Origin: Archangiaceae bacterium
GTDB lineage: Bacteria; Myxococcota; Myxococcia; Myxococcales; Myxococcaceae
DNA: 19,242 bases
NCBI GenBank assembly: GCA_043750125.1
Contig: JAYVCD010000134.1
Location: 1-19,242, forward strand
Direction of reading: 5' to 3'
Shown: positions 1 to 19,094 of the stretch, piece by piece
Layout: each line of letters opens with the position of its first letter
How positions within the stretch are numbered: position 1 is the first letter of the stretch
The notes under the pieces: model-generated
What the model was told of the DNA's origin: nothing
Seen by the model: the letters and a program-made list of their open reading frames with translations, nothing else
The model's database searches: none
Program-made: the position numbers and the translations under genes

Positions 1-94
1 CGAAAGCCGTGTGCGGGAAATCCGCACGCACGGTTTGAATGGAGGTGGGGGAAACCGGATCGCGTGAGCGAAACCGGCGCCCCCATCCACCTAT
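1..94 (+). mobile_element. 3' end of a group II intron (catalytic domain V and branch-point domain VI); the rest of the intron and any RT/maturase ORF lie upstream of the window
   Basis: Nt 4-36 AAGCCGTGTGCGGGAAATCCGCACGCACGGTTT fold as a domain V hairpin: AGC triad at 5-7, AC bulge at 26-27, GAAA-containing loop. Nt ~41-91 fold as domain VI: TGGGGG 46-51 pairs with CCCCCA 80-85, CCGG 55-58 with CCGG 74-77, and TCGC-GTGA-GCGA forms a GNRA tetraloop. Candidate branch A is at 89 and an AY end at 93-94. The exact 3' splice site is inferred. Confidence 0.92.
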
Positions 95-1298
95 GCGCGT
101 GCTGATCGCCGACGAATTCTCGAAGCGTCACCTCGACTCGCTGCGGGGCCTTGGGCTGAGCGTCGAGTACAAGCCCGAGGCGAAGGCCGATGATCTTCCG
201 GCCTTGAGCGCGAACGTCGCAGTGCTGGTGGTCCGCAGCACCGAAGTAAAGCGGCCGGTCTTCGAGAGCTGCCATTCGCTGTCCCTGGTGATTCGGGCCG
301 GGGCGGGCGTGAACACCATCGACGTGGCGGCCGCGAGTGAGCGCGGAGTGTTCGTCGCCAACTGCCCCGGCCAGAACGCGATCGCCGTCGCCGAGCTCGC
401 GATGGGGTTGATGGTGGCCAGCGACCGACGGATTCCGGACAACGTGCAGGCGCTGCGGGAAGGGAAGTGGAACAAGAAGCTGTTTTCGCAGGCCCGGGGT
501 TTGTTCGGCCGAACGCTGGGAGTGGTGGGGCTGGGGTCGATTGGGGTCGCGACGGGTGAGCGGGCCAAAGCCTTCGGGATGCGGGTCGTGGGCCACTCGC
601 GCAGCTTCACCGCCGACAAAGCCCGAGAGCTGGGCTTCGAGTTCGCTCCCAACCTGCTCGAGCTGGCGCGCCAGTCGGACGTGTTGAGCGTGCATGTGCC
701 GGGCGGCGCCGAGACGAAGGGCTTCATCAGCCGCTCGATTCTCGCGGCCCTGCCCGACGGGGCGCTGTTCATCAATACTTCGCGCGCCGACGTGGTGGAC
801 CAGGCCGCGCTGTTGGAAGAGGCGAAGTCGGGGCGGCTGCGGGTGGCGACGGACGTCTATGCCGACGAGCCGAAAGGGGGGGCCTCAGACTGGGTCAGCG
901 CGTTGGCCCAACTGCCCAACGTCTACGGGACCCATCACATCGGAGCCTCGACCGAGCAGGCGCAAGAGGCGATCGCGGACGAGGCGGTGCGCATCGTCGA
1001 GAGCTTCCTCACCCGAGGGGAAGTGCCCAACTGCGTCAACGTCGCGAAGATGACTCTCGCGCGCTTCCAGCTGATCGTTCGCCACCACGACAAGGTCGGA
1101 GTGCTGGCGAACGTGCTGGGCGAGCTGCGCGAGGCGGGCATCAACGCGCAGGAGCTCGAGAACACCATCTTCGAGGGCGGGTTGGCCGCCTGCTGCAAGA
1201 TTCAGATCGACTCGCGACCGGGAGACGAGGTGTTGGCGAAGATCCGGGGACGCACGAACGAGGTGATCTTCACCGACCTGATCGAGCTCAAGAGCTGA
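93..1298 (+). CDS. serA: D-3-phosphoglycerate dehydrogenase-like D-2-hydroxyacid dehydrogenase with C-terminal ACT domain (401 aa)
   Basis: Motifs LVVRS, RAGAGVNTID, NAIAVAE, GLGSIG (NAD binding), NTSRADVVD (catalytic Arg), DVYADEP, HIGASTEQAQ (catalytic His) and ACT-like HHDKVGVLANV. Real start is ATG93 (MRVLIAD); the 39-92 extension is intron sequence. Confidence 0.85.
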   Translation: MRVLIADEFSKRHLDSLRGLGLSVEYKPEAKADDLPALSANVAVLVVRSTEVKRPVFESCHSLSLVIRAGAGVNTIDVAAASERGVFVANCPGQNAIAVAELAMGLMVASDRRIPDNVQALREGKWNKKLFSQARGLFGRTLGVVGLGSIGVATGERAKAFGMRVVGHSRSFTADKARELGFEFAPNLLELARQSDVLSVHVPGGAETKGFISRSILAALPDGALFINTSRADVVDQAALLEEAKSGRLRVATDVYADEPKGGASDWVSALAQLPNVYGTHHIGASTEQAQEAIADEAVRIVESFLTRGEVPNCVNVAKMTLARFQLIVRHHDKVGVLANVLGELREAGINAQELENTIFEGGLAACCKIQIDSRPGDEVLAKIRGRTNEVIFTDLIELKS

Positions 1299-1307
1299 AG
1301 CCGGCGC

Positions 1308-2114
1308 CTACTGGTCGCTGACCGATTGGCAGCTGAAGCCGACGATCTGGTTGATCGCGTAGCTGCCCGACTGGAAGCAGGCCTGCAGGCCGTTCGAGTA
1401 GGGGGTGAGGGTTTGGGACAAGCCCAGGTCGTAGGTCGCGCTGACGTTGGTGGCCTGCTCGAACGACCACTGAACGAAGTAGGGCACGTCGTAGGTCGAG
1501 TCCGGTTGCAGGCCCACCTGGCCCGAGAGCTGGGCGAAGACCGGCTGACTGGTGGCGCCGTTGGGCCCGACGATCGCCACGCTCACCGAGTAGTTCCCCA
1601 CCGCGCAGAAAGCCGAGCCTCCGGTGGTCACGATTCGGGCGCGGCCGGTCGCGCGGCAGACGACGGTGCGCGCATTGACGGTGAAGTCGGTCTGCACGGT
1701 CGAGCGGCGCAGCAACGTCGCCTGGGTGCAGGGGGCGAACGGACCGCTGGTCATGTTGCAGCTGTTGATCAGCTGGCTGCCGAAGAAGGTGTTGGGTCCC
1801 GCCGGCCCCTGGGGCCCTTGAAAGCCGGTCGTCCCGGCTGTGCCTTGTGCTCCGGCAGGACCTTGCGCGCCGGTGGCTCCCGCCGAACGCGCAGTTGGCC
1901 GGGCCGGGAATGGAAGTGCCGACCACCGCCGCACCCGCAGGGCCGGTGACGATCACAATTCCCCCATCGACCCCATCTCACCCATCGCGCCGACTTCCCC
2001 CCGCGCTCCGGGCAGGCCCATTGGCCCTTGCCCCCCGTCCAATCCTCCAAAATTTCCGTTGTTACAACCGATCAACGCCAGGGAGAAAAAGATGGTGAGG
2101 GCGGACTTGGACAT
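1308..2114 (-). pseudogene. Disrupted collagen-like (Gly-X-Y) lipoprotein with a Cys-containing C-terminal domain
   Basis: ATG2114 gives the lipoprotein signal MSKSALTIFFSLALIG-C, then GQGPMGLPGARGEVGAMGEMGSMG, stopped by TGA at 1955-1953. The same frame resumes with GATGAQGPAGAQGTAGTTGFQGPQGPAGP and ends at 1308. The ~80 nt in between read as protein-like (IVTGPAGAAVVGTSIPGPANCAFGG) only in another frame. Confidence 0.7.
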
Positions 2115-2180
2115 GGGGGGCGGCCTGCTACCCAAATCCGGTCCGAACTGCACGCGCTCGACAAAAATGACCCCAGAAGG

Positions 2181-5045
2181 TCAGCCCGCGACGCGGTGAC
2201 CGACGCGCAGCCGCCGCGCTTTCTCGAGCACGTTCTTCAGGTACTTCCCGGTGAAGCTCGCTTTGACCTCGGCCACTTCTTCAGGCGTCCCGGTCGCGAG
2301 CAGCTTTCCTCCGGCGAAGCCCCCTTCCGGCCCGAGGTCGATGACGTGATCGGCGTTCTTGATCACATCGAGGTTGTGCTCGATCACCAACACCGAGTTG
2401 CCCGCATCGACGAGGCGATTGAGCACCTTCAGCAGCTTGCGAATGTCCTCGAAGTGCAGCCCGGTGGTCGGCTCATCGAGAATGTAGAGCGTCCGTCCGG
2501 TCGCGACCCGCGCCAGCTCGCGAGAGAGCTTGATTCGCTGCGCCTCTCCGCCCGAGAGCGTCGGTGACGGTTGACCCAGCCGCAGGTACGACAACCCCAC
2601 ATCGTCCAGCGTCTTCAACACCCGGCTGATGTCGCGGTGGACGCCGAAGTGGCCGATTGCCTCGCGCACCGACAGCTCGAGGATCTCAGCGACGTTCTTG
2701 CCCTTGTAGCGGACCCGCAGAGTCGCATCGTTGAAACGCTTGCCGCCGCAGACTTCACACGGCACGTAGACGTCGGCGAGGAAGTGCATTTCGACCTGGC
2801 GCACTCCATCGCCTTCGCAGGCCTCGCAGCGACCGCCTTTCATGTTGAAGCTGAAGCGGCCCGGGGCATAGCCGAAGGCGCGGGCCTCGGCGGTCTGCGC
2901 GAGCACTTCACGAATGGGATCAAAGACCTTGGTGTAGGTGGCCGGGTTGCTGCGCGGCGTCCGTCCGATCGGCCGCTGATCGATGTCGATCACCTTGTCG
3001 AGGAACTCGAGGCCCTTGATCGAGTGGTGCGCGCCGGGGACGTCGCGGGTGTTGTAGAGCGCGCGGCTGAGCGCCGGGAAAAGAATCTCGTTGATCAGCG
3101 TCGACTTGCCCGCGCCCGAGACTCCGGTGACGGCGACGAACACCCCCAGGGGAATTTCAATGTCGAGGTTCTGAAGGTTGTTCGCCTTCGCCCCGAGAAT
3201 CTGCAGCTTCTGTTTCCCCGGCTTGCGGCGCTTGGCCGGCACTTCGATTTCTTCCCGGCCGGACAAGAATGCGCCGGTCAGGCTCTTCGGATCTGCCATC
3301 ACCTGGGCCGGAGTTCCCTGCGAGACGACTTCTCCACCCAGCTCGCCCGCACCGGGGCCGAAGTCGATCAACCAGTCGGCCTCTTCCATCGTCTCTTCGT
3401 CGTGCTCGACCACGATCACCGTGTTGCCCAGGTCTCGCAGTCGCTTCAGAGTGGTGAGCAGCTTTCCGTTGTCGCGCTGATGCAGCCCGATGCTCGGCTC
3501 GTCGAGGATGTAGATGACGCCGGTCAGCTCGCTGCCCATCTGGGAGGCGAGGCGAATGCGCTGGCTCTCTCCGCCACTGAGCGTGGACGCGGTGCGCTCG
3601 AGCGTGAGGTAGGTGAGGCCCACGTTCTCGAGGAACCCCAGCCGGCTGCGAATCTCTTTCGTCAGCTCGGCGGCGATCTTCGCCTCGGTCGCCGTCAGCG
3701 GCATCTCGTCGAGAAACTTCAACGACTCGCCAATCGTCATTCGCGACAGCTCGACCAACGACTTGCCCGCCACCTTCACCGCGCGGGACTCGGGCTTGAG
3801 CCGCTCTGCCTTGCAGGTCGGGCAGGGCTTGTCCGAGAAGAACTTCAGGTAGTACTGCCGCATCGCTTCTGAGCCGGTGGTCTTGAAGCTCTTCATCAGC
3901 TTGTTGACCAGCCCTTCCCAGCTCATCCGGAACTTGTAGTCGCCCCACTTCATCTTCAGCTCAGCGCCCTGGGCCCCGTAGAGGATCACGTCGCGCGCCT
4001 TCTTCGGCAGCTGCGCCCACGGGGTGTCGAGATCGATGCCAAAGCCTTTGCTGAGTTGATCGACGAGGTCCGCGGTCCAGCCCTCGCCCTTCGCCATCCC
4101 GGTGGCCCAGACCTCGACCGCTCCCTCACGAATGGTGCGGGTCTGGTCCGGGACGATCAGATCGGGATCCATCTCGGGCTTGGTGCCCAGGCCGTTGCAG
4201 TCGGTGCACATCCCCAACGGGTTGTTGAACGAGAAGCTCGCCGGAGTCAGCTCGGGGAAAGAGAGGCCGCAGTGGTGACAGGCGTTCAGCTCGCTCATCG
4301 GGCGGTCGCTCTTGGGGTTGGCGTTTTCGTCGGTGACGATCAGCACCCCCTTCCCCTCTTTGAGCGCGGCTTCGACCGAGTCGGTGAGCCGCGGACGAAG
4401 GTCGCTCTTGAGCACCAGGCGATCGATGATCAGCTCGACGTCGTGCTTGCTCTTCTTGTCGAGGTCAATTTTTTCATCGAGCCCCCGGACCTTGCCGTCG
4501 ACCCGCGCGCGGGTGAAGCCCCGCTTCAGCGCCTCGAGCATCAGGTCTTTGTGCTCGCCCTTGCGGTGGGTCACGATCGGAGCCAGCAGCTGCAGCTTGG
4601 TCCCGTTGGGCGACTTCATGATCTCTTCGACGATCTGCTGGGCCGACTGCTTGCCGACCTTCCGGTCGCAGTTGTGACAGTGCTGAACGCCGATGCTGGT
4701 GTAGAGCACGCGCAGGTAGTCATGAACTTCGGTCACCGTGCCGACGGTAGACCGCGGATTGTTGCTGGCCGCTTTCTGCTCGATCGAGATGGTCGGCGAG
4801 AGGCCCTTGAGCGTGTCGTACCGCGGCTTGTCCATCTGGCCGAGGAACTGGCGCGCGTAGCTCGAGAGCGACTCGACGTATCGGCGCTGACCTTCGGCGT
4901 AGAGGGTGTCGAAGGCCAGGCTGCTCTTTCCCGAGCCCGACACCCCGGTAAAGACGATCAACTTCTTCTTCGGGATGTCGAGGGACACCCCTTTGAGGTT
5001 GTGCTCGCGAGCTCCGCGGACCGACAGGAATTCCGGTTCAGACAT
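2181..5045 (-). CDS. uvrA: Excinuclease ABC subunit A (954 aa)
   Basis: N-terminal GAREHNLK, two Walker A motifs (GVSGSGKSS, GVSGAGKST), two LSGGE signatures, LDEPSIGLH and LDEPTTGLH, and CxxC zinc-finger pairs. Confidence 0.99.
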   Translation of the reverse strand: MSEPEFLSVRGAREHNLKGVSLDIPKKKLIVFTGVSGSGKSSLAFDTLYAEGQRRYVESLSSYARQFLGQMDKPRYDTLKGLSPTISIEQKAASNNPRSTVGTVTEVHDYLRVLYTSIGVQHCHNCDRKVGKQSAQQIVEEIMKSPNGTKLQLLAPIVTHRKGEHKDLMLEALKRGFTRARVDGKVRGLDEKIDLDKKSKHDVELIIDRLVLKSDLRPRLTDSVEAALKEGKGVLIVTDENANPKSDRPMSELNACHHCGLSFPELTPASFSFNNPLGMCTDCNGLGTKPEMDPDLIVPDQTRTIREGAVEVWATGMAKGEGWTADLVDQLSKGFGIDLDTPWAQLPKKARDVILYGAQGAELKMKWGDYKFRMSWEGLVNKLMKSFKTTGSEAMRQYYLKFFSDKPCPTCKAERLKPESRAVKVAGKSLVELSRMTIGESLKFLDEMPLTATEAKIAAELTKEIRSRLGFLENVGLTYLTLERTASTLSGGESQRIRLASQMGSELTGVIYILDEPSIGLHQRDNGKLLTTLKRLRDLGNTVIVVEHDEETMEEADWLIDFGPGAGELGGEVVSQGTPAQVMADPKSLTGAFLSGREEIEVPAKRRKPGKQKLQILGAKANNLQNLDIEIPLGVFVAVTGVSGAGKSTLINEILFPALSRALYNTRDVPGAHHSIKGLEFLDKVIDIDQRPIGRTPRSNPATYTKVFDPIREVLAQTAEARAFGYAPGRFSFNMKGGRCEACEGDGVRQVEMHFLADVYVPCEVCGGKRFNDATLRVRYKGKNVAEILELSVREAIGHFGVHRDISRVLKTLDDVGLSYLRLGQPSPTLSGGEAQRIKLSRELARVATGRTLYILDEPTTGLHFEDIRKLLKVLNRLVDAGNSVLVIEHNLDVIKNADHVIDLGPEGGFAGGKLLATGTPEEVAEVKASFTGKYLKNVLEKARRLRVGHRVAG

Positions 5046-5063
5046 GGCTTCGACTCAGTAGCA

Positions 5064-5080
5064 CCGCACGGGCGTTCAGT
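5064..5080. promoter_or_regulatory. Candidate Myxococcus-type LexA (SOS) box upstream of uvrA
   Basis: CCGCACGGGCGTTCAGT matches 14 of 17 positions of the M. xanthus LexA consensus as I recall it (CTRHAMRYBYGTTCAGS), with the GTTCAG half intact. It lies 19-35 nt upstream of the uvrA ATG. Confidence 0.45.
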
Positions 5081-5205
5081 CCGTGAATTTGGGGAATGAG
5101 TTGAGATACTCACCGTGCCCCTTCCCAGCAATGGCTTCTTGGCGAGACGCCCGCGGGGGGGGGCGGTTTTGTATTGAGGGCCAGAGGGGTGTCTATGCTC
5201 GCCAG

Positions 5206-5937
5206 ATGTTCAGTCGCGCGCGTGGTGCTGCCGGCGCGACCAGCTGTGGCGGTTGCTGCATTTCAGGACTCTGCGTCGGAACTCAATTTCAAAATGCCTC
5301 GCTCTGTGGAGTGAATGGCAAGACCTGCTCTCCCTGCAACGCAATGCAGCTGTGCGTCAGCGGAGTCGGCGGAGGAGGCGGTGGCTTCTCTCAATCTGGC
5401 CCGGGCAGCTGCGCGGGTTGCTGCATCGGCGGCGTCTGCCTCGACCCTCTCTTTGAGAACGCTCTCGACTGCGGCTTGAACGGAAAGATGTGCGGCGCCT
5501 GTGCTTCCGGCGAGGTCTGCGCGGCAGGCTTCAGCCTCGACGGGGGAGCTGTGGGCTCGCCGTGCTCGTACGACGGCCAGTGCCAGCCGCCGAGCAATGG
5601 CCTTTGCATTCCTCAATCCGTGGTCGGGAATTCGACCGGCTGGCCCGGCGGATACTGCACTGCCAGCTGCGCGATGACCGCCTGCGGGCCGGGCTCGTCG
5701 TGCATCAATGCGGCGAACGCGAGCGGCGTTGCGAATTGGCTGTGCTTCCACAGCTGCGTCGGGCCGCGCACCGGTCAGTCGACCTGCCGCTCCAACTATC
5801 TGTGCGAGTTCGATCTCGGAAACCCCACCGGTCTGGGCGTCTGCTTTCCGCGGTGCGACAGCCCGGGCTTCACCTGCTGGTCGGGGACCGTCTGCAGTCC
5901 GCTCACCGGGTACTGCATGAGCGCAGGCCCCAAGTAG
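5206..5937 (+). CDS. Cys-rich, probably extracellular protein with two 41-aa 8-Cys repeats; 5' end uncertain or damaged (possible pseudogene)
   Basis: Very Cys/Gly-rich ORF including a WPGGYCTASC segment typical of myxobacterial Cys-rich proteins. There is no signal peptide in frame, and the best SD+ATG (GAGGGG 5184-5189, ATG 5195) is out of frame. Confidence 0.6.
   Translation: MFSRARGAAGATSCGGCCISGLCVGTQFQNASLCGVNGKTCSPCNAMQLCVSGVGGGGGGFSQSGPGSCAGCCIGGVCLDPLFENALDCGLNGKMCGACASGEVCAAGFSLDGGAVGSPCSYDGQCQPPSNGLCIPQSVVGNSTGWPGGYCTASCAMTACGPGSSCINAANASGVANWLCFHSCVGPRTGQSTCRSNYLCEFDLGNPTGLGVCFPRCDSPGFTCWSGTVCSPLTGYCMSAGPK
5242..5529 (+). repeat. Internal duplication of a 41-codon Cys-rich module (5242-5364 and 5407-5529)
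   Basis: SCGGCCISGLCVGTQFQNASLCGVNGKTCSPCNAMQLCVSG versus SCAGCCIGGVCLDPLFENALDCGLNGKMCGACASGEVCAAG: same length, 8 Cys at identical positions, joined by a Gly-rich linker. Confidence 0.85.
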
Positions 5938-5948
5938 CGGGCCCGTGT

Positions 5949-6587
5949 TCAGAGCTGAACCCTGAGCTCGCGCGCCTTCTCGGCCCGCTTGCGCGAGAGC
6001 TCGACCCCGATCGCGTCCATCCCCAACGCGTTGGCCACCGCCAGCGCACTGCCCAGCCCGCAGAACGGATCCACCACCGTACGCGAGGAAGTGCAGTCGA
6101 GCAGGAAGCGGCACGACACCACGCACGCTTCGATTCCCATCGCGCGGGCCCAGGTCATCTTGCCCAGCCGGGGAATCACGTCGGCAGTCGATTGATCGAG
6201 ATCCGCGCGCAGCCCTCGAGAGAACGCGAGCAGGTGCGCATACGACGGTCGGCCGAAGGTGATCGTGCCCGCGGGCGCCCGGCAGACGATTCGATGCCAG
6301 AGCAGGCGTGCTCCTGCGGCTTCAGCGCCCAGCTGACACAGGTGCCCCTTGTCGATCCACGCGCCCTCTCGCTTCACGTCGGTCTGAAAGAAGAGCGCCG
6401 CCGAATCGTCGGGACACGCTTCCAGACAGGTCTTCACCCCTTCGATGAACCATTGCCGCCAGCCCAGAAAGCCGAGCGAGGGAATCTCGCAGCTGTCCGG
6501 TAGCGAGGTGATGATCGACTGGCCGCTGCTCAGGGGGTTGGCCTTGAGCCAGGCGATGCCATCGGTTTGGTGAACGACGCGATTCAT
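5949..6587 (-). CDS. SAM-dependent methyltransferase, N4/N6 DNA-methylase-like fold with beta-class motif order (212 aa)
   Basis: C-terminal motif I VVDPFCGLGS...AIGVELS and N-terminal IITSLPD at the motif IV position. Start is ATG6587 (MNRVVHQTDG) with an AGGAG SD just upstream. Confidence 0.8.
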   Translation of the reverse strand: MNRVVHQTDGIAWLKANPLSSGQSIITSLPDSCEIPSLGFLGWRQWFIEGVKTCLEACPDDSAALFFQTDVKREGAWIDKGHLCQLGAEAAGARLLWHRIVCRAPAGTITFGRPSYAHLLAFSRGLRADLDQSTADVIPRLGKMTWARAMGIEACVVSCRFLLDCTSSRTVVDPFCGLGSALAVANALGMDAIGVELSRKRAEKARELRVQL

Positions 6588-6663
6588 TGCTCCTGCTCTT
6601 AGACCTGCCGCCGCCTTTCTGTTCACTGGAACTCGTCTCGCGCTGAGGTTAACTGCGCTCGCC

Positions 6664-6904
6664 ATGCCGACCGACTTCACGTTGCCCGCACGCGACGGCG
6701 TTCCTCTCGCCGCCACCTTGTTCGAGTCTGAGCTCACGCCGCGCATGGGCGTGGTGCTGATCAACTCGGCGACCGCGGTCAAGCGCGTCTTCCATGCACG
6801 GTTTGCCGGGTGGCTGGCGTCGCAGGGCCTACGACGTCATCACCTATGACTACCGCAGCATCGGAGGTTCCCGGCCCCCCCCCCCGCGGTTCAGCCTCCA
6901 ATAA
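6664..6904 (+). pseudogene. N-terminal fragment of an alpha/beta-fold hydrolase, frameshifted and truncated
   Basis: MPTDFTLPARDGVPLAATLF...VVLINSATAVKRVFHARFAGWLASQG; removing one base near 6828 continues as YDVITYDYRSIGGSRP, the typical (T/F)DYRGxGxS segment. It then runs into a poly-C tract (6875-6885) and TAA 6902-6904 without reaching a GxSxG nucleophile motif. Confidence 0.8.
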
Positions 6905-6971
6905 TTGAGCGCCGGCGCAGTCGGCTGAAGGCTACAACCGCGCGTGTTTTCCACGCTCTGGGGGTTGCTTC

Positions 6972-9900
6972 GTGAGCCACAAATCAATCGCACTCTTCTG
7001 CGCTGCCGGGCTGCTGTTCGGCGCGTGCACCTGTGCTGACAACTCGACGACGGCCTCCGACAAAGTCGGTTTGAACGGACAGTCGCCTCCCCTGGACTTG
7101 AAGCCGTTGCCGGTTCCTCCGCGGATGCACGTTTCGCCCGAAGCTCTGCCGGGCGCAGGCCAGGAGCTCGCCGTCGCCGCCAAGCGACCGACCGGCGAAG
7201 TTCCGGGTGAAGTGCGACCCACGGTGACGTTCACCCGGCCGGTGAAGAGCCTCGAGCAAGTCGAAGATCAGCGCGCCGCCGATGCCGCCCACCCGTTCGC
7301 GAAGATCGAGCCCGCGCTCAAAGGCGAATGGCGCTGGCTGGGTTCGGCGTCGGCCGAATTCGTCCCCGACGGGTTGGTTCCGATGTCCACCTCCTTCACC
7401 GTCACCGTCTTCAAGGGGCTCAAGGCGCTGGACGGAAGTGAGCTCAAAGCAGACGTGCTCTGGGCCTTCAATACCCCGGCGCTCGAGCTGCAAGAGACCC
7501 TGCCTCGCCGCGACTTCCATTGGATGAAGCCCGATGAAGCGGTGAACCTGCTGTTCAACCAGCCGGTCAACGACGCTGAATTGGTCGCGGCTGCGAAGTT
7601 CGAAGTCGACGGCCAGCTGTGGAAAGCCCAGTTGATGAAGCGGGTTTCGATCGCCGACGAACGGCGCGAGCTGATGGAAAAGGCGAAAAAAGAAGGCCAC
7701 CCCCTCGCGCCGCTGGGCGACGAAGTCCGCGGGTGGCGCAACGCGCAGGTTCGCTACACCCTGGCTCCCGAGAAGCCGTTTCCGCTGGGAAAGGCGATCT
7801 CTTTGAAGCTCGACCCGGGGCTCCACGGCGAGCAGGGCCCGCTGAAGATGAAGCCGACAGCTCCGATTTCGTGGCGCACCTATGGCCCGCTGGCGCTGCT
7901 CGAAGTCAAGCCGTGCGGTCCAGACCCCTACCGCTGTTCCTGGGGTCCGCTGGTGGTGCGCACGTCCAACGAGGTCGAGGTGTCGACTCTGAAGGGCAAG
8001 CTGAAGATCACGCCCCCGGTGGAGATCGACTGGGACGCCTCGCGCGCGGACAGCTGGGGCGACTCGGAACAGGCGGTCCGGCTGGTCGGAAAGTGGCGTC
8101 CGGGCACCAGCTACAAAATCGAAATCGACCCGGGAGCGGCAGACGTCTTCAACCAGGTCGACCCCTCGGGCTTGAAAGGCAGCGTCGCGTTCAGCGACTT
8201 GAGCCCCGCGCTGGTGACCGGTGGCTACCTGGCCCTGGTCGAAGCGTCCGGCGTGGCGCCCAGGCTTCCCGTCGAGCTGAGCAACTTGAAGACGCTGGAC
8301 GTGAAGATGTGGAAGCTCTCGATCGAAGAGCTGGTGAAAGCAGTGGCCCGCGCCGCCTACGACGATCAAGCGGTGATCACCCGGGCTCCCGACTTCAGCG
8401 AGCGGCAAGACATCAAGTACCCGAAGAACCACGCGCGGGTGCATTCGATCGAGCTGGCGAAGCTGTTCGGCGAATCGAAGACCGGGGTCGCGCTGGTGAG
8501 CGTGAACTCGGAGCAGCTCGAGTCCAAACCGAAAGAAGGGTTTCTGCAGTTGGCGCAGGTGACGGACCTGGCGGCGCACGTGAAGGTCGCTCCGAAGAAG
8601 TCGCTGGTCTGGGTGACCCGGCTTTCCACCGGGGCTCCGGTCGCCGGTGCAGACGTGACGTTCTACGACGACACCGGCGCGGTGAAGTGGACAGGGAAGA
8701 GCGACGAAAACGGCTTTGCGGATCCCCCCGGCACGGTCGAGCTCAAGCTGAGCAACCCGAAATACCAGTGGGAATATCCGTTCGCGTTGATCACCGCCGC
8801 GAAGGACGGCGACCTGGGCTTCACCGCCAACACCTGGAGCACCGGGGTCGAGCCCTATGAGTTTGGCCTTTCCCAGGGCTGGGAAGGCGAGGCTCCCGCC
8901 AATGCCTCGTTCGTCTTTGCCGACCGTGGCATCTACCGCCCGGGCGACACCGCCTACATCAAAGGCGTGATCCGCTATCGCACCGTCGGCGAGCTGCGTG
9001 CGCCGGCCGAAGGATCTCAGCTGTCCGTGATCCTCACCGACTCGCATGGAGAGAAGGTGAAGTCGCAGACCGTGAAGGTCTCGAAGTACGGAACGTTCGC
9101 GATCGAAGCGGTGATCCCCAAAGACTCCCCCCTGGGCTACTGGGGCGTCAGCGTCACCGGCAGCGCGTCTTACGGAAACCTCGAAGCGAACGGATCCTTT
9201 CGGGTCGAGGAGTACCGCGCCCCCCAGTTCAAGGTGGACCTCGAGGCCCCGAAGAAATCATTGGTGATTGGCGACGTCCTCGAGGCTCGGGTCTTCGCCC
9301 GATACCTGTTCGGCGGCGCGATGAACGACGCCCGGGCCAAGTGGAGCGTGAACCGCAGTTCGTCGACCTTCACCGCTGCCTCCGCTCCCGACTTCACCTT
9401 CGCCCAGGAGACGTGGTGGTGGGACGACCGCCAGCCCGAGCAGACTTTGGGGTTCTTCGGCGCCGGCGAAGGCCGCGTCGACGCGAAGGGTGAGCTGCTG
9501 ATCAAGGCGGGCCAGGTCGAGGCTCCGGGCGAGAAGCCGTTCGAGTACACGATTGAAGCCGAGGTCGAAGACGTGAACCGCCAGTCGGTGGCAGGTCGCG
9601 CCGAAGTGATGGTGCACCCCGCGTCTTTCTACGTGGGCCTGCGCTCGAGCAGCGGGTTTCTCAAGGTCGGCGCCGAGGTCGCGCTCGACACCGTCGTGAC
9701 CGACACCTCGGGGAAGAAGGTCGCGGGCCGAAAGGTCGAGGTCACGATCAACGCCCGCACCTGGAAGTCGGTGAAGAAGAAGGACGCCACCGGTGGCTTC
9801 AGCACCGTCAGCGAGCCGGAAGAAAAAGAAGTCCACAAATGTGCGCTCACCAGCAGCGATGCGGCGGTTCCGTGCAAGTTCAGTCCGGCCACCGCGGGGT

Positions 9901-12900
9901 TCTTCATCGTCACCGCCGCGGTCAAGGACGACGCGGGCCGGCGCCACCGTTCGTCCCTCGGGGTCTACGCGACGGGCGAGCAGTTCGTCGCCTGGCAGCG
10001 CAACGACACCGATCGCATCGAGCTGGTGGTCGACAAGCCCAGCTACGACGTGGGCGACGTCGCCCGCGTGTTGGTCAAGTCTCCCTACCCCGAGGCCGTC
10101 GGAGTGCTGACCGTCGAACGGGAAGGCGTGCTCGAGCGTCGGGCGTTGAAGCTCAAGGGCAGCGTGACCGCGGTCGAAATCAAGATCACCGAAGAGATGG
10201 TGCCGAACATCTTCGCCGGCGTGGTGCTGGTGCATCCCCGGGTGGCCAAAGGGGGCATCGAGACCGGAGACGATCCCGGCCGGCCCGCGGCGCGCATCGG
10301 CTTCGTGAAGCTCAACGTCGAGAAGAAGACCAAGCGCCTGGCGGTGGACGTGAAGGCCGATCGGTCGGCCTATCGTCCCGGCGAGCAGGTGACGGTCACC
10401 GTCGACGTGAAGGACTCGAACGGCAAATCGCAAGACGGAGAAGTCACGCTCTATGCGGTCGACGAAGCGGTGCTGCGGTTGACCGCCTACGAGACCCCGG
10501 ACCCGATCGCTGCGATTTTCCCCGAGCGCCCCTTGTCCGTTCGCCTCGGCGAGCCGCTGCTGCACCTGGTCCGACAGCGCAACTATGGCGAGAAGGGCGA
10601 GTCGCAAGGCGGAGGCGGTGGCAGCTCTGAAGGCGCCGGCTTCCGCACCAACTTCAAGACCACGGCGCTCTGGCTTCCCTCGCTCGAGACGAAGGGCGGC
10701 ACCGCGACGGCGAAGTTCACGCTGCCCGACAACCTCACCACCTTTCGTTTGATGGCGGTGGTGGTGACCCAGCAAGAACGGTTTGGATCTGGAAAGAGCG
10801 ACCTGGTGGTGAACAAGCCGGTCCTTGCGCTGCCGGCGTTGCCGCGCTTCGCCCGGGTGGGCGACAAGTTCGAGGCGGGGGTGGTGGTGCACCTGCACGA
10901 CATCAGCGGGAAGGGCGATGACACCGCGGCCCAGGTCACGGTGACCGCCTCGGCCGAAGGGGCAACCGTCAGCGGGCCGGCGCAGCAGCAGGTGACGGTG
11001 TCGCCGAGCGCGCCGCGAGAAGTGCGCTTTGCCTTCACCGCCGACAAAGCGGGGATCGCCACGTTCCGGTTCAAGGCGACGAAGGGCGCCGACTTTGATG
11101 GGGTCGAGCAGAAGATCCCGATCGAGCTGCCGGTGGCGATCGAGACGGTGGCGACGTACGGCGACACGACGGACAGCCGGGTGGAGGGCCTGGCTCCTCC
11201 GAAAGACGCCGTCGAGGATCTCGGAGGCCTCGAGGTCACGCTGGCCTCGACCTCGCTGGGCAACTTCGGCAAAGGCTTTCAACAGCTGGTCGAGTACCCC
11301 TACGGCTGTCTCGAGCAGCAGTCGTCGCGGTTGGTTCCGTTCGTGGCGATGCGGGAAATCGCCGGACAATTTGCGATTCCCTGGCCGGGCAGCAACCCGA
11401 AGAAACAAGCGCAAGAGGACGAGCTGAACGCGCTGATGCGCACCTACCTCTTCGACACCCTCGACGTGAGCGGCGAGAAGAACCCCGACAAGGTCGTCGC
11501 CAGCACGGTGCGATCGATTCTCAATCTGCAGGATGAAGACGGCGCCTTCCGGTACTGGAGCACCTCGACCTGCGCTTCCAGCTGGCAAAGCGCGTACGCG
11601 ACGATGGCGTTGTCGCGGGCGAAGGAAGTCGGGTTTGCGGTACCGGCGGACAAGCTGCGCCGCGCCGAGGCTTTTCTCACCAAGGTGGTGGGCGGCACCT
11701 GTCATCCGTGTGAGCTGGGTTGCCCGGACGAGGTGCGGGTGTTTGCAGCCTACGTTCTGGGTCGCAACAAGAAGGCGAAGGCCAGCGCGTACCCTGAATT
11801 TTATGCGCGGCGTCAGAAGCTCTCGTTGTTCTCGCGGGCGCTGCTGGCCAACGCGATGTTCACCGCCGGCGGTGACCGGAAGCAGGCCAATGCGCTGATG
11901 GCCGAGATCCTCAATTACGCCAAAGAATCGGCCAAGGGCATTCACTTCGAGGAAGCGAGCTCTTCGACCTACGCGACGCTCTGGCAGTCGGACACCCGGA
12001 CGACTGGAGTGGTGTTGCAAGCCCTGACGAACATCACTCCGGATCATCCGTTCGTCTCGAAGATGGCGCGCTACCTCACCGGGGTGCGGCAGGGCGATGG
12101 GAAGTGGCGCTCGACCCAGGAAGCGGCGTTCTCGTTGATGGCGCTCACCGAAGTGCTGCGCACCAAAGAACGTGAGACTCCCAACTACAGCGCGACCGTG
12201 GCGCTGGGGCCGGCCCCGCTGGTGGAACAGAAATTCGAGGGGCGCTCGCTCACCAGTCCGTCGAAGAGCATCGCGATGGCCGACCTGCTCAAGCTTGCGA
12301 CCGGCAAGCCGCAGAACCTGACGTTCAAGAAAGACGGAACGGGCGTCCTTTATTACTCGGCGACGCTGAAATACGCGTCGAAGAACATGCCGACCACGGC
12401 GTTGGACAACGGGCTGTTCGTCCAGCGGTGGTTCGAGCCCTACACCGGCGGAGGACAGGCGCTGAAGTTCTACGCCGGCGACCTGGTGCGGGTGCGGGTG
12501 CGGGTCGGGTCGAACCAGGAACGTCACTGGGCTGCGATCGAAGTGCCGCTGCCCGCGGGCCTCGAGCCGGTCGACACCACGCTGGCGAGCACCGCGAAGC
12601 TGGCTGCGGGTCCCGGCGAAGAGAGCCGGGGACCGGGCTACGAGAGTCAAAGTGAGCTCGACGAGGAAGGCGGCAGCGCGGTCGAGCCCGAAGAGGCGGG
12701 GCCGTGGGCGACCGGGTTCTGGACTCCGTTCACCTTCACCGAGACCCGCGATTCGAAAGTGGTGTTGTTCGCAGATCACCTTCCCCCGGGGGTGCACGTC
12801 GCAAGCTTCGTGGCGCGCGCGACGACGCCGGGCCGCTTCATCTTGAAGCCCGCCCGCGGGACATTGATGTACGAGCCCGAGGTCTGGGGCCGCAGCGAAG

Positions 12901-12947
12901 GAGGGACATTCGAGGTGGTGATCCCCACTCCAGTGAGCTCGAAATAG
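6972..12947 (+). CDS. yfhM: Bacterial alpha-2-macroglobulin family lipoprotein (1991 aa) with thioester motif
   Basis: Lipobox LLFGA-C, MG2 motif FADRGIYRPGD, FRVEEYRAPQF, a Gly-rich bait-like region before FRTNF, LPDNLTTFR, thioester YPYGCLEQ (CLEQ at 11307-11318), WRSTQE and C-terminal MYEPEVWGRS. Directly followed by pbpC. Confidence 0.96.
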   Translation: MSHKSIALFCAAGLLFGACTCADNSTTASDKVGLNGQSPPLDLKPLPVPPRMHVSPEALPGAGQELAVAAKRPTGEVPGEVRPTVTFTRPVKSLEQVEDQRAADAAHPFAKIEPALKGEWRWLGSASAEFVPDGLVPMSTSFTVTVFKGLKALDGSELKADVLWAFNTPALELQETLPRRDFHWMKPDEAVNLLFNQPVNDAELVAAAKFEVDGQLWKAQLMKRVSIADERRELMEKAKKEGHPLAPLGDEVRGWRNAQVRYTLAPEKPFPLGKAISLKLDPGLHGEQGPLKMKPTAPISWRTYGPLALLEVKPCGPDPYRCSWGPLVVRTSNEVEVSTLKGKLKITPPVEIDWDASRADSWGDSEQAVRLVGKWRPGTSYKIEIDPGAADVFNQVDPSGLKGSVAFSDLSPALVTGGYLALVEASGVAPRLPVELSNLKTLDVKMWKLSIEELVKAVARAAYDDQAVITRAPDFSERQDIKYPKNHARVHSIELAKLFGESKTGVALVSVNSEQLESKPKEGFLQLAQVTDLAAHVKVAPKKSLVWVTRLSTGAPVAGADVTFYDDTGAVKWTGKSDENGFADPPGTVELKLSNPKYQWEYPFALITAAKDGDLGFTANTWSTGVEPYEFGLSQGWEGEAPANASFVFADRGIYRPGDTAYIKGVIRYRTVGELRAPAEGSQLSVILTDSHGEKVKSQTVKVSKYGTFAIEAVIPKDSPLGYWGVSVTGSASYGNLEANGSFRVEEYRAPQFKVDLEAPKKSLVIGDVLEARVFARYLFGGAMNDARAKWSVNRSSSTFTAASAPDFTFAQETWWWDDRQPEQTLGFFGAGEGRVDAKGELLIKAGQVEAPGEKPFEYTIEAEVEDVNRQSVAGRAEVMVHPASFYVGLRSSSGFLKVGAEVALDTVVTDTSGKKVAGRKVEVTINARTWKSVKKKDATGGFSTVSEPEEKEVHKCALTSSDAAVPCKFSPATAGFFIVTAAVKDDAGRRHRSSLGVYATGEQFVAWQRNDTDRIELVVDKPSYDVGDVARVLVKSPYPEAVGVLTVEREGVLERRALKLKGSVTAVEIKITEEMVPNIFAGVVLVHPRVAKGGIETGDDPGRPAARIGFVKLNVEKKTKRLAVDVKADRSAYRPGEQVTVTVDVKDSNGKSQDGEVTLYAVDEAVLRLTAYETPDPIAAIFPERPLSVRLGEPLLHLVRQRNYGEKGESQGGGGGSSEGAGFRTNFKTTALWLPSLETKGGTATAKFTLPDNLTTFRLMAVVVTQQERFGSGKSDLVVNKPVLALPALPRFARVGDKFEAGVVVHLHDISGKGDDTAAQVTVTASAEGATVSGPAQQQVTVSPSAPREVRFAFTADKAGIATFRFKATKGADFDGVEQKIPIELPVAIETVATYGDTTDSRVEGLAPPKDAVEDLGGLEVTLASTSLGNFGKGFQQLVEYPYGCLEQQSSRLVPFVAMREIAGQFAIPWPGSNPKKQAQEDELNALMRTYLFDTLDVSGEKNPDKVVASTVRSILNLQDEDGAFRYWSTSTCASSWQSAYATMALSRAKEVGFAVPADKLRRAEAFLTKVVGGTCHPCELGCPDEVRVFAAYVLGRNKKAKASAYPEFYARRQKLSLFSRALLANAMFTAGGDRKQANALMAEILNYAKESAKGIHFEEASSSTYATLWQSDTRTTGVVLQALTNITPDHPFVSKMARYLTGVRQGDGKWRSTQEAAFSLMALTEVLRTKERETPNYSATVALGPAPLVEQKFEGRSLTSPSKSIAMADLLKLATGKPQNLTFKKDGTGVLYYSATLKYASKNMPTTALDNGLFVQRWFEPYTGGGQALKFYAGDLVRVRVRVGSNQERHWAAIEVPLPAGLEPVDTTLASTAKLAAGPGEESRGPGYESQSELDEEGGSAVEPEEAGPWATGFWTPFTFTETRDSKVVLFADHLPPGVHVASFVARATTPGRFILKPARGTLMYEPEVWGRSEGGTFEVVIPTPVSSK

Positions 12948-12996
12948 CGTGGGCTGTCCCGTTCACCTCGAGCCCCGTCGAAGGACGCGCCGGTAG

Positions 12997-15381
12997 ATGC
13001 TGCGGCGAATCCGGCGGGGCATCTTCGGGGCGGTGGCAGTGGCGGGCTGCGTGGCGCTGGCGTTCATCGCCGCTCCGCTGCCGCCAGGCCTGACCGACTA
13101 CCGCCCGGTGTCCTCGGTACGGGTGCTCGATCGAAGCGGAGGGCTGCTTCGGGAAATCAAGTCGAGCGCCGACGGCCGGTCGACTCCGCTGAAGAGCTCA
13201 GAAATTCCCCTCCCCGTGCGCAACGCGTTTCTCGCCGCCGAAGACCATCGGTTCTTCCAGCACCTGGGAGTGTCCGTCACGGCGCTGGTGCGCGCGGCGT
13301 GGCAGGACGTGCGGGCGGGAAAAATCGTCGCCGGGGGCTCGACAATCTCGATGCAGCTGGCCCGGACGCTGGTGCCGCGCGAGCGAACCCTGCTCGGGAA
13401 GGCCGGAGAAGCGCTCTGGGCGCTGCGGCTCGAAGCGCACCTGTCGAAGGACGAGCTGCTGACCCAGTATTTGAATCGGGTCCCGTTCGGAAACAACACC
13501 TTCGGGCTCGAGGCGGCCTCGCAGCTGTACTTCGCGCGCCGGGCCGAACACCTGTCGCTGGGCCAGGCGGCGGCCCTGGCGGCGCTGCCCCGAGGACCCT
13601 CGGCCTACAACCCCTACCGCCGGCCCGAGGCGCTCGAGCGACGACGGCAGTGGGTGCTTTCCCGCATGGGGCAGACGGGGCTCGCGTCCCACGACGCGAT
13701 CGAAGAGGCGAAGGTCACGGCGCTCGACTTGTCCGCGTTCGAGGCCACCTTTCGAGCCCCCCACTTCGTCGAGTACGTCATCTCGCACCTGGCAGCGTGG
13801 GGCTTGTCGGATGCCACCGTGGTTCAGACTTCGCTCGATCCCCAGCTGCAGCCGCAGGTCGAACAGCTGATTCACGAAGAGCTCTTGCGCCTGTCTGATC
13901 GCCGGGTCGGCTCGGCCGCGGCGGTCGTGATCGACAACGAGACCGGACAGGTGCTCGCCTACCAGGGGAGCATCGATTTTTTCGATGACGCGGTCGGCGG
14001 GCAGAACGACGGAATCCAGATGCATCGGCAGCCCGGGTCGGCGCTCAAGCCCTTCGTCTACGCCCAGGCCTTCGCGCAGGGCTTCACTCCGGCAACGGTG
14101 ATCGCGGATCTCGAGACCCACTTCGCGGCGCAGAAAGGCACCTGGTCCCCGAAGAACTACGACCGGAAGACCCACGGGCCGGTTCGGGCGCGAGAGGCGC
14201 TCGCCAACAGCTACAACGTCCCGGCGGTTAAGGTGGCCGAGGCGATCGGCCCTTCGGCGCTGCTGGCCTTGTTGCGCCGCGCGGGGTTCGAGTCGCTGCA
14301 TGAATCGGCCGAGCACTATGGCCTGGGGCTGGTGCTCGGCAATGGCGAGGTGTCCTTATGGGAAGCCGCGCGCGCCTACCGGGGGCTCGCGCAGGGTGGG
14401 GTGGTGCGGCCACTGCACCCGGTGCTTCAGGCCTGGCGCGCCGACGGCACCGAGCTCGCACTGACTCAGGAGCTCAAGCCGCGCCGATTCGCCCAACCCC
14501 AGGCGGCTGCGCTGGTGACCCACGTGCTGCAGGACAACGCCGCCCGCGCGAGGGCGTTCGGGCTCGACAACGCGCTTCGGTTGCCCTTTCCCACTGCGGC
14601 CAAGACCGGAACGAGCAAGGGCTACTCGGACAATTGGACCGTCGGGTTCACCCACGAGCGCACGGTCGCGGTCTGGGCGGGGAACTTCGATGGCTCGCCG
14701 ATGATTCGGGTGTCGGGAATCACCGGGGCGGGCCCTGTTTTTCGGCGGGTGATGACCGCGGCAATGGCGGGGGTGAACCCGTCCGGGCTGGTCGACGAGC
14801 GGGGACTGACGACCGCTCAGATTTGCCCGCTGTCGGGCCGACTGGCGGGGCGCTACTGCCCGGCCCAGATGGAAGAGAAGTTCGCGCTGGGCACTGAGCC
14901 GACCCAGAGCTGCCAGATGCACGATGCCGCGTCGCCGCGACTGCCGCCCGAGCTGGCTCAGAAGTGTCTGCAGCTGCAGGCGGGGCAGGGGCGCCTGGTG
15001 GATCTGGGAGTCGACTACTACGACTGGGCGCAGGCGCAGGGGCTGTCCGATGAGCCGTGGCTCGCGGCGGCTTGTCGCGTCGACCCAGCGACCGACCCCG
15101 CCGTTCCCCACATTCTGTTTCCCATCAATGGAGATGAGTTCCTGCTGCTGTCAGATCTTCCCCTCGAAGATCAGGCCATTCCGGTGCGGATCCGAGCGAC
15201 CGCCGCCGTGGGCCCGCTCGAGCTTCGGGTCGACGGTCGGCTGGCGCAGACGATCTCGGTTCCGTTCACGACGCGAATTCCGGCGCTGCGCGGGGCCCAT
15301 ACGCTCTCGGTCCACAAGCCGGGAGATCTGCGCGCGCTGGGCGAGGTGAAGTTCCAGGTCCGAGCTGAAACGTCGCTTTAG
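12997..15381 (+). CDS. pbpC: Penicillin-binding protein 1C (bifunctional transglycosylase/transpeptidase, 794 aa)
   Basis: N-terminal TM anchor, transglycosylase motifs EDHRF, GGSTISMQLAR and YLN, transpeptidase motifs SALK (SxxK), SYN and KTGTS, and the canonical position downstream of alpha-2-macroglobulin. Confidence 0.95.
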   Translation: MLRRIRRGIFGAVAVAGCVALAFIAAPLPPGLTDYRPVSSVRVLDRSGGLLREIKSSADGRSTPLKSSEIPLPVRNAFLAAEDHRFFQHLGVSVTALVRAAWQDVRAGKIVAGGSTISMQLARTLVPRERTLLGKAGEALWALRLEAHLSKDELLTQYLNRVPFGNNTFGLEAASQLYFARRAEHLSLGQAAALAALPRGPSAYNPYRRPEALERRRQWVLSRMGQTGLASHDAIEEAKVTALDLSAFEATFRAPHFVEYVISHLAAWGLSDATVVQTSLDPQLQPQVEQLIHEELLRLSDRRVGSAAAVVIDNETGQVLAYQGSIDFFDDAVGGQNDGIQMHRQPGSALKPFVYAQAFAQGFTPATVIADLETHFAAQKGTWSPKNYDRKTHGPVRAREALANSYNVPAVKVAEAIGPSALLALLRRAGFESLHESAEHYGLGLVLGNGEVSLWEAARAYRGLAQGGVVRPLHPVLQAWRADGTELALTQELKPRRFAQPQAAALVTHVLQDNAARARAFGLDNALRLPFPTAAKTGTSKGYSDNWTVGFTHERTVAVWAGNFDGSPMIRVSGITGAGPVFRRVMTAAMAGVNPSGLVDERGLTTAQICPLSGRLAGRYCPAQMEEKFALGTEPTQSCQMHDAASPRLPPELAQKCLQLQAGQGRLVDLGVDYYDWAQAQGLSDEPWLAAACRVDPATDPAVPHILFPINGDEFLLLSDLPLEDQAIPVRIRATAAVGPLELRVDGRLAQTISVPFTTRIPALRGAHTLSVHKPGDLRALGEVKFQVRAETSL

Positions 15382-15893
15382 ACCAGGGCCTCTTTCTTCT
15401 TCTTCGCTTCGCGATCGCGCTTCCACCCGGCGAAGAGCAAAAAGGCAATTCCGGCCAGGATCGCCAGGTCGGCAACGTTGAACACCCCGGTGCGCAACCG
15501 ACCGATGCCCATGTTCATGAAGTCGACCACCGCGCCGTCATTGCGCGCCCGATCGACCCAGTTCGACAAGCCGCCGCCGGCAATCATCGCGTAGCCGGCG
15601 ACCTGGCCGCTGTCGAGGGCTCCGCTGGTGGCAGTGAAGATCACGATCCCCAGCAGCAGCAGCCCGACCGCCACGGTGAGAATTCCAAACCGCATCCCAT
15701 CGGGAAGGTTCGCCCCCAAAGAGAGGAACGCGCCTTCGTTGGTCGCCCAGGTCAGCCGAAACGTGTCCCCCAAAAACGACCGCATCGGCTCGCCCTTGAG
15801 CGTCGCATTCGCCAATTGCTTGGACGCTTGATCGCATCCGACTGAGAGGCCGAGCACAGCGAAGAGCAGCAGCAAGCGATTGAAGAGCGTCAC
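15378..15893 (-). CDS. lspA: Lipoprotein signal peptidase (signal peptidase II), 171 aa
   Basis: Motifs DQASK, NEGAFLSLG, GGGLSNWVDR, VVDFM and FNVAD (catalytic Asp pair), with hydrophobic TM segments. AGGAG SD precedes the GTG start; the stop overlaps the pbpC stop (convergent). Confidence 0.95.
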   Translation of the reverse strand: MTLFNRLLLLFAVLGLSVGCDQASKQLANATLKGEPMRSFLGDTFRLTWATNEGAFLSLGANLPDGMRFGILTVAVGLLLLGIVIFTATSGALDSGQVAGYAMIAGGGLSNWVDRARNDGAVVDFMNMGIGRLRTGVFNVADLAILAGIAFLLFAGWKRDREAKKKKEALV

Positions 15894-15911
15894 ACGCGTC
15901 TCCTGCCAGAT

Positions 15912-15977
15912 TCAGAAGCGCCCCGCCAGAGCGATGCCGCCGACGACAACCACGACCCGCGCGAGCCCGCCTTCGCC
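15912..15977 (-). pseudogene. Possible C-terminal remnant of a deleted exported protein gene (...VVVVVGGIALAGRF*)
   Basis: The spacer between the YfiR-like gene and lspA reads GEGGLARVVVVVGGIALAGRF-TGA on the minus strand, resembling the terminal-Phe beta-strand endings of myxobacterial exported proteins. It has no start codon of its own. Confidence 0.35.
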
Positions 15978-16525: not shown

Positions 16526-16526
16526 G

Positions 16527-18515: not shown

Positions 18516-18587
18516 GAGCTCGGGACCGTAACGTTTTTTGCGACCGAAACAACTTTGTGACCCCAGCCTTGCGATCGGAAGGGTCGG

Positions 18588-18722
18588 TTAGCGGTGGGGT
18601 TCCGGGTCGTGAAGCTGCGGGCGCCGCAGGGACCTTGAAGACCACTTCCAGAAATGTCCGATCTCGACGCAGATCAGTGGGAAGTTTCTCAATGCATCAC
18701 GACCCGTAATGACTCCGCGCAT
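18588..18722 (-). pseudogene. Small ORF (44 aa, MRGVITGRDALRNFPLI...), probably a frameshifted remnant of a short conserved protein
   Basis: Strong SD AGGAGG (18728-18733), ATG at 18722 and TAA at 18590-18588. A TFLEVVFK segment follows in another frame (~18657-18634), suggesting an internal deletion. Not in the supplied ORF track. Confidence 0.5.
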
Positions 18723-18747
18723 TAGAACCTCCTGTGGCTTTTTGAAG

Positions 18748-18763
18748 AGCAAGCCCGATGCCG
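18748..18763 (-). promoter_or_regulatory. Candidate sigma-54 (-24/-12) promoter
   Basis: Minus strand CGGCATCGGGCTTGCT gives GG-N10-GC with GGCA and TTGCT, close to the consensus TGGCACG-N4-TTGCW. The predicted start falls just upstream of the AGGAGG SD of the small ORF. Confidence 0.6.
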
Positions 18764-19084: not shown

Positions 19085-19094
19085 CGGGGGCGCT

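Follow-up and report, generated by a model that had tools for sequence, protein, structure and literature searches.

A predicted group II intron on the start codon of a serA-like gene, and a lineage that probably borrows leaderless host starts

The stretch analysed here, called the window, is the 19,242-nucleotide contig JAYVCD010000134.1 of an Archangiaceae bacterium (contig C134, positions 1-19242, of a bin with 460 contigs and 6.17 Mb, referred to as genome G000). Judging from its sequence, the element at the window start is a group II intron, and it occupies the start codon of a serA-like gene. The explanation that we find rather probable is that this site holds an intron of a start-codon lineage which uses a leaderless host start to express its reverse transcriptase (RT), that splicing rebuilds the host mRNA, and that the intron carries a spare terminal start. 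Group II introns, from which spliceosomal introns are presumed to descend, serve as gene-targeting tools, and the arrangement described below is a widespread variant of their biology, apparently undescribed in the literature searched.

A first-pass annotation, made from the letters alone, had placed domains V and VI of a group II intron in the first hundred positions and proposed a covariance-model search. The Rfam model Intron_gpII (RF00029) matches positions 2-96 of the + strand with 44.3 bits (gathering score 40, E 6e-06), the sole gathering-level RNA hit in the 19 kb, and the minimum free energy (MFE) fold of positions 2-98 has the same two domains, at -47.7 kcal/mol (z -4.53, with none of 200 shuffles equally stable). 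A89 is the candidate branch point, 5 or 6 nucleotides (nt) from the intron end depending on the register. The GGAGG-like run GGAGGTGGGGG (41-51), on the 5' strand of domain VI, pairs with CCCCCATCCACC (80-91), and because it is tied up inside domain VI no free Shine-Dalgarno (SD) sequence precedes the ATG at 93-95, which is what the annotation had read. The features at this end of the window are:

1-95, + strand: 3' end of a group II intron of about 2.0 kb (RF00029; near-identical or identical at 8 contig ends); the remainder is off the contig, with the 5' end on contig C318.
4-36, + strand: domain V hairpin (Rfam alignment and MFE fold).
39-94, + strand: domain VI; a C-A-C bulge holds the candidate branch point, A89 (fold z -4.53; CYAYC branch motif and 4 nt after it in 52/57 callable relatives).
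2-67, + strand: C-terminal end of the RT/maturase open reading frame (ORF; ...ESRVREIRTHGLNGGGGNRIA, TGA stop at 65-67), running through domain V into VI (window sequence; frame set by contig C167 and locus L058).
93-95, + strand: terminal start codon carried by the intron, sharing the frame of the host gene (8/8 copies; 52/57 callable relatives; empty sites hold the upstream codon only).
93-1298, + strand: serA-like D-2-hydroxyacid (phosphoglycerate) dehydrogenase gene of 401 amino acids (Pfam, orthologues), its exonic part starting from 95 or 96.

The 5' side of the locus was found by clustering all contig ends of G000. Four contigs (C317, C318, C319 and C79) end in an identical 92-nt sequence, GTGCGTCGTGAAGG..., and two more (C3 and C90) carry variants of it; all six of these ends are directly preceded by ATG, and the GTGCG-like 5' end that the annotation had expected is present on C318 and the five others. 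Of these six, C318 alone can be aligned to the 1500 nt that precede serA in a same-genus genome (G004, locus L008; 80-82% over about 1400 nt), and on the strength of this alignment we take C318 to be the 5' partner of the window contig. With a slash at each junction, the occupied locus reads C318...TATGGT gcgcgg ATG / GTGCG ... CCACCTATG / CGC GTG (codon 2 of serA onward). The intron-less serA loci of the same-genus genomes G003 and G004 (L007 and L008) have a single ATG, compared with two at the occupied site.

Which of the two start codons is native can be read from loci where the upstream codon and the terminal triplet differ, of which there are seven. In L082 the gene nadD reads GTG / intron ... 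ATG / GAC CGA, and its intron-less, 95%-identical counterpart L122 reads TAGAAT-7 nt-GTG GAA CGA; L055 reads ATG / ... GTG / CTG CCG, and the intron-less L129 reads TACGATGCTCCGCC ATG CTC CCC. From these orthologues it follows that the upstream codon and the hexamer before it belong to the host, and that the terminal ATG or GTG belongs to the intron. Insertion in front of the start codon had been considered as well, and is ruled out by the same two empty sites. The nadD genes of L117, L124 and L125 retain TACAAT-6/7 nt-GTG, and the hexamer is thus kept in intron-less orthologues at 72-95% protein identity. L082 and L084, both from the same metagenome-assembled genome (MAG), have an identical RT and sit on the GTG starts of nadD and of another gene, both with TAGAATCCCG in the 5' flank. 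No empty-site contig was found among the contigs listed from the metagenome runs X1, X2, X3 and X5 against window 1-500; one X3 unitig begins at position 93, where a branch is possible, and this proves nothing.

The annotation had proposed that the intron was inserted at AT/G, that the native SD was left in the 5' exon, and that splicing acts as a regulatory switch for translation of serA. Its starting point, an intron located on a start codon, is sound, and host translation probably does need splicing. The ribosome binding site that it assumed is absent: the 5' exon on C318 is without a SD, so that the splice junction does not restore a SD with an ATG, and has in its place a -10-like TATGGT at 6 nt, a leaderless-type distance, before a complete ATG. 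Evidence of regulation was not found, and since at least ten unrelated start codons are occupied in G000, and about 60 in other genomes, the placement is not specific to serA. We therefore regard the model of a spliced-in SD and a serA switch, taken as a whole, as quite improbable.

The exact position of the cut deserves its own comment. Eight of eight copies in G000 share sequence through G95, and a repeat unitig in two metagenome runs also ends at 95. Because the 5' exon likewise ends in ATG, DNA alone cannot separate AT/G...AT/G from ATG/...ATG/, and the 3' splice site may lie either after T94 or after G95. A cut at ATG/ (G95) is favoured by the GUGCG register and because it leaves 6 nt behind the branch A, the number found in the Rfam consensus too; a cut at AT/G (T94), which is possible as both flanks share TG, is favoured by an invariant G as first intron base and by the AY end, and many relatives read TTGCG or TCGCG after the start codon. 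The start-codon placement given in the annotation thus stands, its intron end at T94 is not established with all copies alike through G95, and its insertion at AT/G is a possible cut that is unproven next to a 5' exon holding the full ATG. The last bases of the intron do rebuild an in-frame ATG, as it had said, and this terminal ATG is common to the eight copies and in frame with serA.

The serA-like gene itself agrees with the annotation. The ORF from ATG 93-95 to 1298 matches 2-Hacid_dh_C (2e-43) and 2-Hacid_dh (2.8e-27) in Pfam, with an ACT match that is sub-threshold, and its orthologues in 11 related genomes, 62-90% identical, align from residue 1 (MR[VIL]L[IV]AD...). An in-frame ATG at 39, inside domain VI, gives a false ORF of 419 amino acids (39-1298), and automatic annotation would probably over-extend the gene into the intron through it; a practical consequence is that the start positions of host genes of such introns are miscalled by gene callers.

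The intron is present in many copies in this genome. The first 95-99 nt or so of the window recur at seven other contig ends (C2, C362, C427 and C363 at 100%, C167 at 98.9%, C439 and C298 at 96.8%); all eight ends are alike through ...CCACCTATG and unrelated beyond, and the window begins at a contig break caused by a multi-copy repeat. In the metagenome runs X1 and X2 the repeat unitig (10-95) has a depth of about 103 and the serA unitig (70-500) of about 9.3, which is consistent with roughly ten copies, although other organisms could add to the repeat depth. A second, related subfamily in G000 comprises a complete but internally deleted copy of 844 nt on C90, which shows both ATGs within one contig, and a 3' fragment on C46. 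Together at least ten copies from two subfamilies are placed on the start codons of unrelated genes, and from the terminal ATG eight of ten 3' junctions open ORFs of 81-812 codons, several with N-termini that are signal-peptide-like or lipoprotein-like. The mapping of further copies, proposed in the annotation, bears on its regulatory switch: with this many copies on unrelated genes, start-codon placement is a property of a mobile element, and a switch specific to serA is unsupported. Expression of serA probably depends on splicing, and this would be a side effect of the lifestyle of the element rather than a dedicated switch.

One might object that a mere 95-nt intron tail upstream of serA is a dead remnant or an assembly artefact, and it is true that the window holds domains V and VI only and that the genome is a bin of 460 contigs. 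The contig breaks about 97 nt inside the repeat, just like the seven other contig ends, its partner contig C318 ends in the intron 5' end, five copies are 100% identical, which argues for recent activity, and metagenome unitigs independently join positions 70-500. The isolated fragment that the annotation had named as a possible outcome is therefore not what is found, with the GTGCG end on C318 and the RT/maturase ORF on C167, and we find the remnant or artefact explanation scarcely credible.

Other sequences in G000 and its relatives were noted as well. A 231-nt piece on C19 (12354-12584), 91% identical to part of the RT gene and inside a 47-kb contig far from the contig ends, looks like a decayed remnant. 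Internally deleted copies occur independently on C90 (691-1534) and in L020 (1243-2359), with most of domains I-IV and part of the RT missing, and both retain an open start-codon frame into the remaining RT sequence. The contig ends of G000 also hold many other multi-copy repeat families (e.g. one at 13 ends, among them C119, C208 and C255, and one at 8 ends, among them C110 and C19), several of which lie directly against CTAG or TA-like target sequences and may be insertion sequences.

A wider survey finds the habit in other genomes too. A species-representative genome collection was searched with the RT, giving a sample that was not selected by insertion site; the survey set holds the best 80 loci of at least 600 stretches, 595 of them confirmed, plus L019 and L020 from relatives, 82 loci in all, and the hosts of the related loci are Myxococcota, Acidobacteriota, Planctomycetota, Actinomycetota and others. 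In 59 of the 62 loci with a callable 5' junction the intron comes after a start codon (ATG in 48, GTG in 10, TTG in 1), the other three belong to the most distant loci (46-50% RT identity), and three further loci fit the start-codon pattern by eye. A hexamer TAnnnT with a spacer of 6 or 7 nt precedes the codon in 51 of 55 junctions (33 and 18, respectively), the count being restricted to those flanked by 20 nt or more, and with a spacer of 8 nt in three more; among control NTG sites in the same loci, TAnnnT at 6 or 7 nt is found at 70 of 19195 (0.36%). There is a C at -1 in 40 of the 55, and the flank is otherwise not conserved beyond hexamer and codon. A TAnnnT at 6-7 nt before a start codon, with no SD, is the signature of leaderless genes. 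In G000 itself TAnnnT peaks at spacer 6, before 77 of 11690 long-ORF starts where the background is about 15, so starts of this class exist in the genome but are rare, and the intron copies are placed almost exclusively in them.

The 3' ends, called from the CYAYC branch motif plus 4 nt, tell a similar story, since 52 of the 57 callable ones finish in ATG (48) or GTG (4), mostly as CTACC-AATG; of the other five, four are outgroup loci and one is probably a mis-call. From these ATG or GTG ends 50 of 52 frames are open for 60 codons or more or reach the end of the locus, while the other two frames are equally open in 14 and 33 of the 52, and the ORF criterion alone is weak because the DNA is GC-rich and other frames are often open too. 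In the RT tree one branch (SH-aLRT 99) sets 66 rows (arrangement present in 61 of 61 callable loci) apart from 14 rows (0 of 13).

A few relatives show variations on the theme. Nine loci (L034, L047, L049, L050, L052, L053, L055, L057 and L090) have 3' ends of the form TAGGAT (or TAGGCT)-CTACCA-ATG/GTG, which mimic the target of the lineage and could be an internal leaderless promoter or a tandem-insertion site. As a general route to host expression an internal -10-like box was rejected, being confined to a subset of relatives and not present in the intron of the window. In L083 and L064 the 5' end is about 3.3 kb and about 1.2 kb from the RT, compared with the usual 0.5 kb or so, which suggests that something has inserted within these two introns.

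The reading frame through the ribozyme bears on how the element may use the host start codon. At 25 of the 29 junctions with at least 60% RT identity (the closest clade), a single ORF of 617-680 codons runs from the flanking start codon through the ribozyme and into the RT, and the other two frames at these 29 junctions are open for 3-76 codons. In 28 full-length loci of this fusion type the ribozyme part, with a mean of 555 nt, has no stops in the start-codon frame compared with 145 and 172 in the others, and it falls into 13 length classes (504-597 nt), all of which are multiples of 3. The pieces from G000 agree, with stops per frame of 0, 0 and 2 on C318, 0, 2 and 5 on C3, and 0, 5 and 10 on C90. 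A more distant clade, largely actinobacterial, keeps 100-162 codons open in the start-codon frame and 3-23 in the others. Where RT and start codon are not fused, 16 of 30 loci have a GTGA/ATGA overlap at the end of the start-codon ORF, and in 10 more this ORF stops 5-9 nt ahead of the RT frame start (26 of 30 in all); on its sequence such a stop-start arrangement looks like ordinary translational coupling.

The body of the intron is best known from copies other than that of the window. C167 retains 1149 nt upstream of domain V, with RT domains and domain X, and its frame crosses domain V and stops at a TGA corresponding to window 65-67; when this piece was searched by BLAST in the 460-contig bin only fragments were found (C19 and C90), and the interior of the window copy is not in the bin. 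The closest full-length relative, L058 in an Archangium MAG, is an intron of 2023 nt that shares 90% identity with the C167 and C318 pieces and 95.8% with window 1-95. Its single ORF of 665 codons begins at the exon ATG and stops 25 nt short of the terminal ATG, with matches to RVT_1 (2.2e-32), GIIM (6e-14) and TIGR04416 (403.7 bits over residues 236-600). The domain searches found only RVT_1 and GIIM in it and no endonuclease (En) domain, the protein ends about 60 residues past domain X, and its first 235 residues or so had no family match. The distance of 25 nt from RT stop to terminal ATG is found only in the subfamily of the window, L058 and L059, and in L019 the stop precedes domain V; reinitiation after the RT stop was for this reason set aside as a general rule. 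In relatives the region crossed by the open frame is also a structured RNA: among 16 of them, 87 of 149 predicted pairs in domains I-IV have compensatory changes, and RF02003 matches L019 and L020 with 62 and 60.3 bits. A terminal loop at alignment columns 287-295 has an invariant CAU in all 16 sequences, and this CAU(G) loop is complementary to a 5' exon with (C)AUG as its end.

Taken together, the element probably works as follows. The target genes would be leaderless, with transcription beginning at the A or G of the start codon, and ribosomes would load on the 5'-terminal start codon and translate through domains I-III into, or up to, the RT, so that the element would borrow the combined transcription and translation start of the host. 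Splicing would restore the leaderless host mRNA exactly, and the spare terminal start codon may limit the cost to the host gene when the RNA stays unspliced. Since leaderless initiation requires a 5'-terminal AUG, it is plausible that efficient host translation needs splicing. The CAU(G) loop can pair with (C)AUG, which would account for the codon and the C at -1 but not for the hexamer; the latter may be read by the intron particle, required through transcription, or selected afterwards.

Several observations weigh against this reading. Four of the 29 close-clade copies are out of frame, and in G000 two of the ten 3' junctions, on C427 and C46, open only 6 and 37 codons, the 5' exon of C90 has TAAAGA instead of TAnnnT, and the spacer of C3 is 8 nt. 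The interior structure and ORF of the window copy are derived from C167 (98.9% over 95 nt) and L058 (about 90%). Related loci are kin and their counts overstate independent support, and the RT tree is from a quick maximum-likelihood search. Only one RNA run was among the 20 sequencing runs found, and it holds 4% of the words. A 5' exon of 2-3 nt in the RNA would give the CAU loop 2-3 pairs, which is hard to square with efficient splicing. The TAnnnT could be a recognition motif of the intron particle and not a promoter, and there is a conserved GAGGG(C/A)ATG at the canonical RT start, from which translation of the RT could begin internally, like that of other bacterial group II introns. As for the C427 copy (1-120), the 6-codon frame that follows it (MRRAGG and a stop) would fit a non-genic insertion or a disrupted host gene.

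The objections about a recognition motif and an internal RT start form the core of an alternative in which nothing but the target is unusual. In ordinary retrohoming, TAnnnT and (C)NTG would be a DNA motif of the intron particle, recognised by protein contacts to the distal 5' exon and a short pairing with exon-binding site 1 (EBS1), the RT would be made from its internal ATG, and the open frame would merely let stray ribosomes pass. The conserved CAU(G) loop and the C at -1 fit this well, and the En-less intron RmInt1 reportedly needs a T at -15 of its target. A rigid contact fits less well than a promoter with a spacing between hexamer and codon that varies (6 nt in 33, 7 nt in 18 and 8 nt in 3 junctions), and the retention of the hexamer in intron-less orthologues makes it a conserved host element; G000 also has the TAnnnT peak of its own. 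Passive tolerance is also unable to explain the lack of stops in one frame against 145 and 172 in the others, the 13 in-frame length classes or the 26 of 30 stop-start arrangements. On balance we think that retrohoming of the ordinary kind is an unlikely explanation, and prefer the intron that borrows a leaderless host start.

More tentatively, and with somewhat more doubt than confidence, we propose that the lineage as such has merged its expression with the leaderless module of its hosts, by insertion behind promoter-adjacent starts, a 5' exon of 2-3 bases, RT made by leaderless translation across domains I-III, and a spare start at the end. The choice of target may then be promoter-dependent, that is transcription-coupled or promoter-read, rather than made via a long pairing between exon- and intron-binding sites (EBS-IBS). 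Such an element raises the questions of how a ribozyme tolerates being translated, how it splices with a 5' exon of 2-3 nt, and whether a leaderless mRNA can be regenerated by an intron at all.

Free-standing ORFs in domain IV are the rule in bacterial group II introns. The yeast mitochondrial cox1 introns aI1 and aI2 have an RT ORF in frame with the upstream exon, through ribozyme domains I-III. They are organellar IIA introns deep in a gene, with a long exon-encoded N-terminus, whereas the present lineage is bacterial and the exon part is the start codon only; a protein read from the host start codon through a folded ribozyme is thus known in yeast mitochondria, and was not found for bacteria in the literature searched. 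Group IIC introns, like this lineage, have a functional signal class as target, a short EBS1-IBS1 pairing and a minimal effect on host genes, but read a DNA hairpin downstream of genes (Rho-independent terminators, attC), while this lineage sits at a promoter and start codon, at the first codon boundary. In the literature searched on group II introns, leaderless genes and start codons the arrangement was not described, with Michel et al. 2007 as a possible exception.

The annotation had pointed to a specialised lineage at translation signals of the type of the Azotobacter groEL intron, and a start-codon specialist it is. The specialised IIB1 introns at initiation and termination codons (Avi.groEL, EcKTE56.groEL) are described in passages of Gomes et al. 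2025 (PMC12584367) as proteobacterial, with a CL1 RT that has an endonuclease domain, a subdomain Ia of 300-700 nt, and an own SD and UUG start in DIVa. They share with the present lineage the habit of lying within or next to translation signals, and their first or last bases rebuild the signal (TA/G... for groEL), according to the same passages. Membership in that clade is nevertheless very hard to believe: there is no En domain in the present lineage, the 504-597 nt from intron 5' end to RT leave no room for a subdomain Ia of that size and there is no large insertion in domain I, the hosts are spread over many phyla, and the -10-like box in the 5' exon, the RT frame joined to the host start codon and the terminal ATG or GTG also set the two apart. 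How some group II introns colonise start and stop codons is stated to be unknown in the Introduction of PMC12584367, and the present lineage gives one concrete and testable answer, namely that the target is a functional class (-10 box and start codon) with minimal base pairing.

The lineage probably has its relatives elsewhere. The terms ATG, promoter, target site, insertion site and "in frame" do not occur in the passages of Toro and Martinez-Abarca 2013 (PMC3552965) that were searched. By protein architecture the lineage probably belongs with the En-less classes F and g1-g4 described there (Mx.xa.I1, Sg.ce.I1, Ca.ac.I1, Rh.js.I1), which have, like it, RT and X without D/En, IIB-like RNA, and myxobacterial or actinobacterial hosts.

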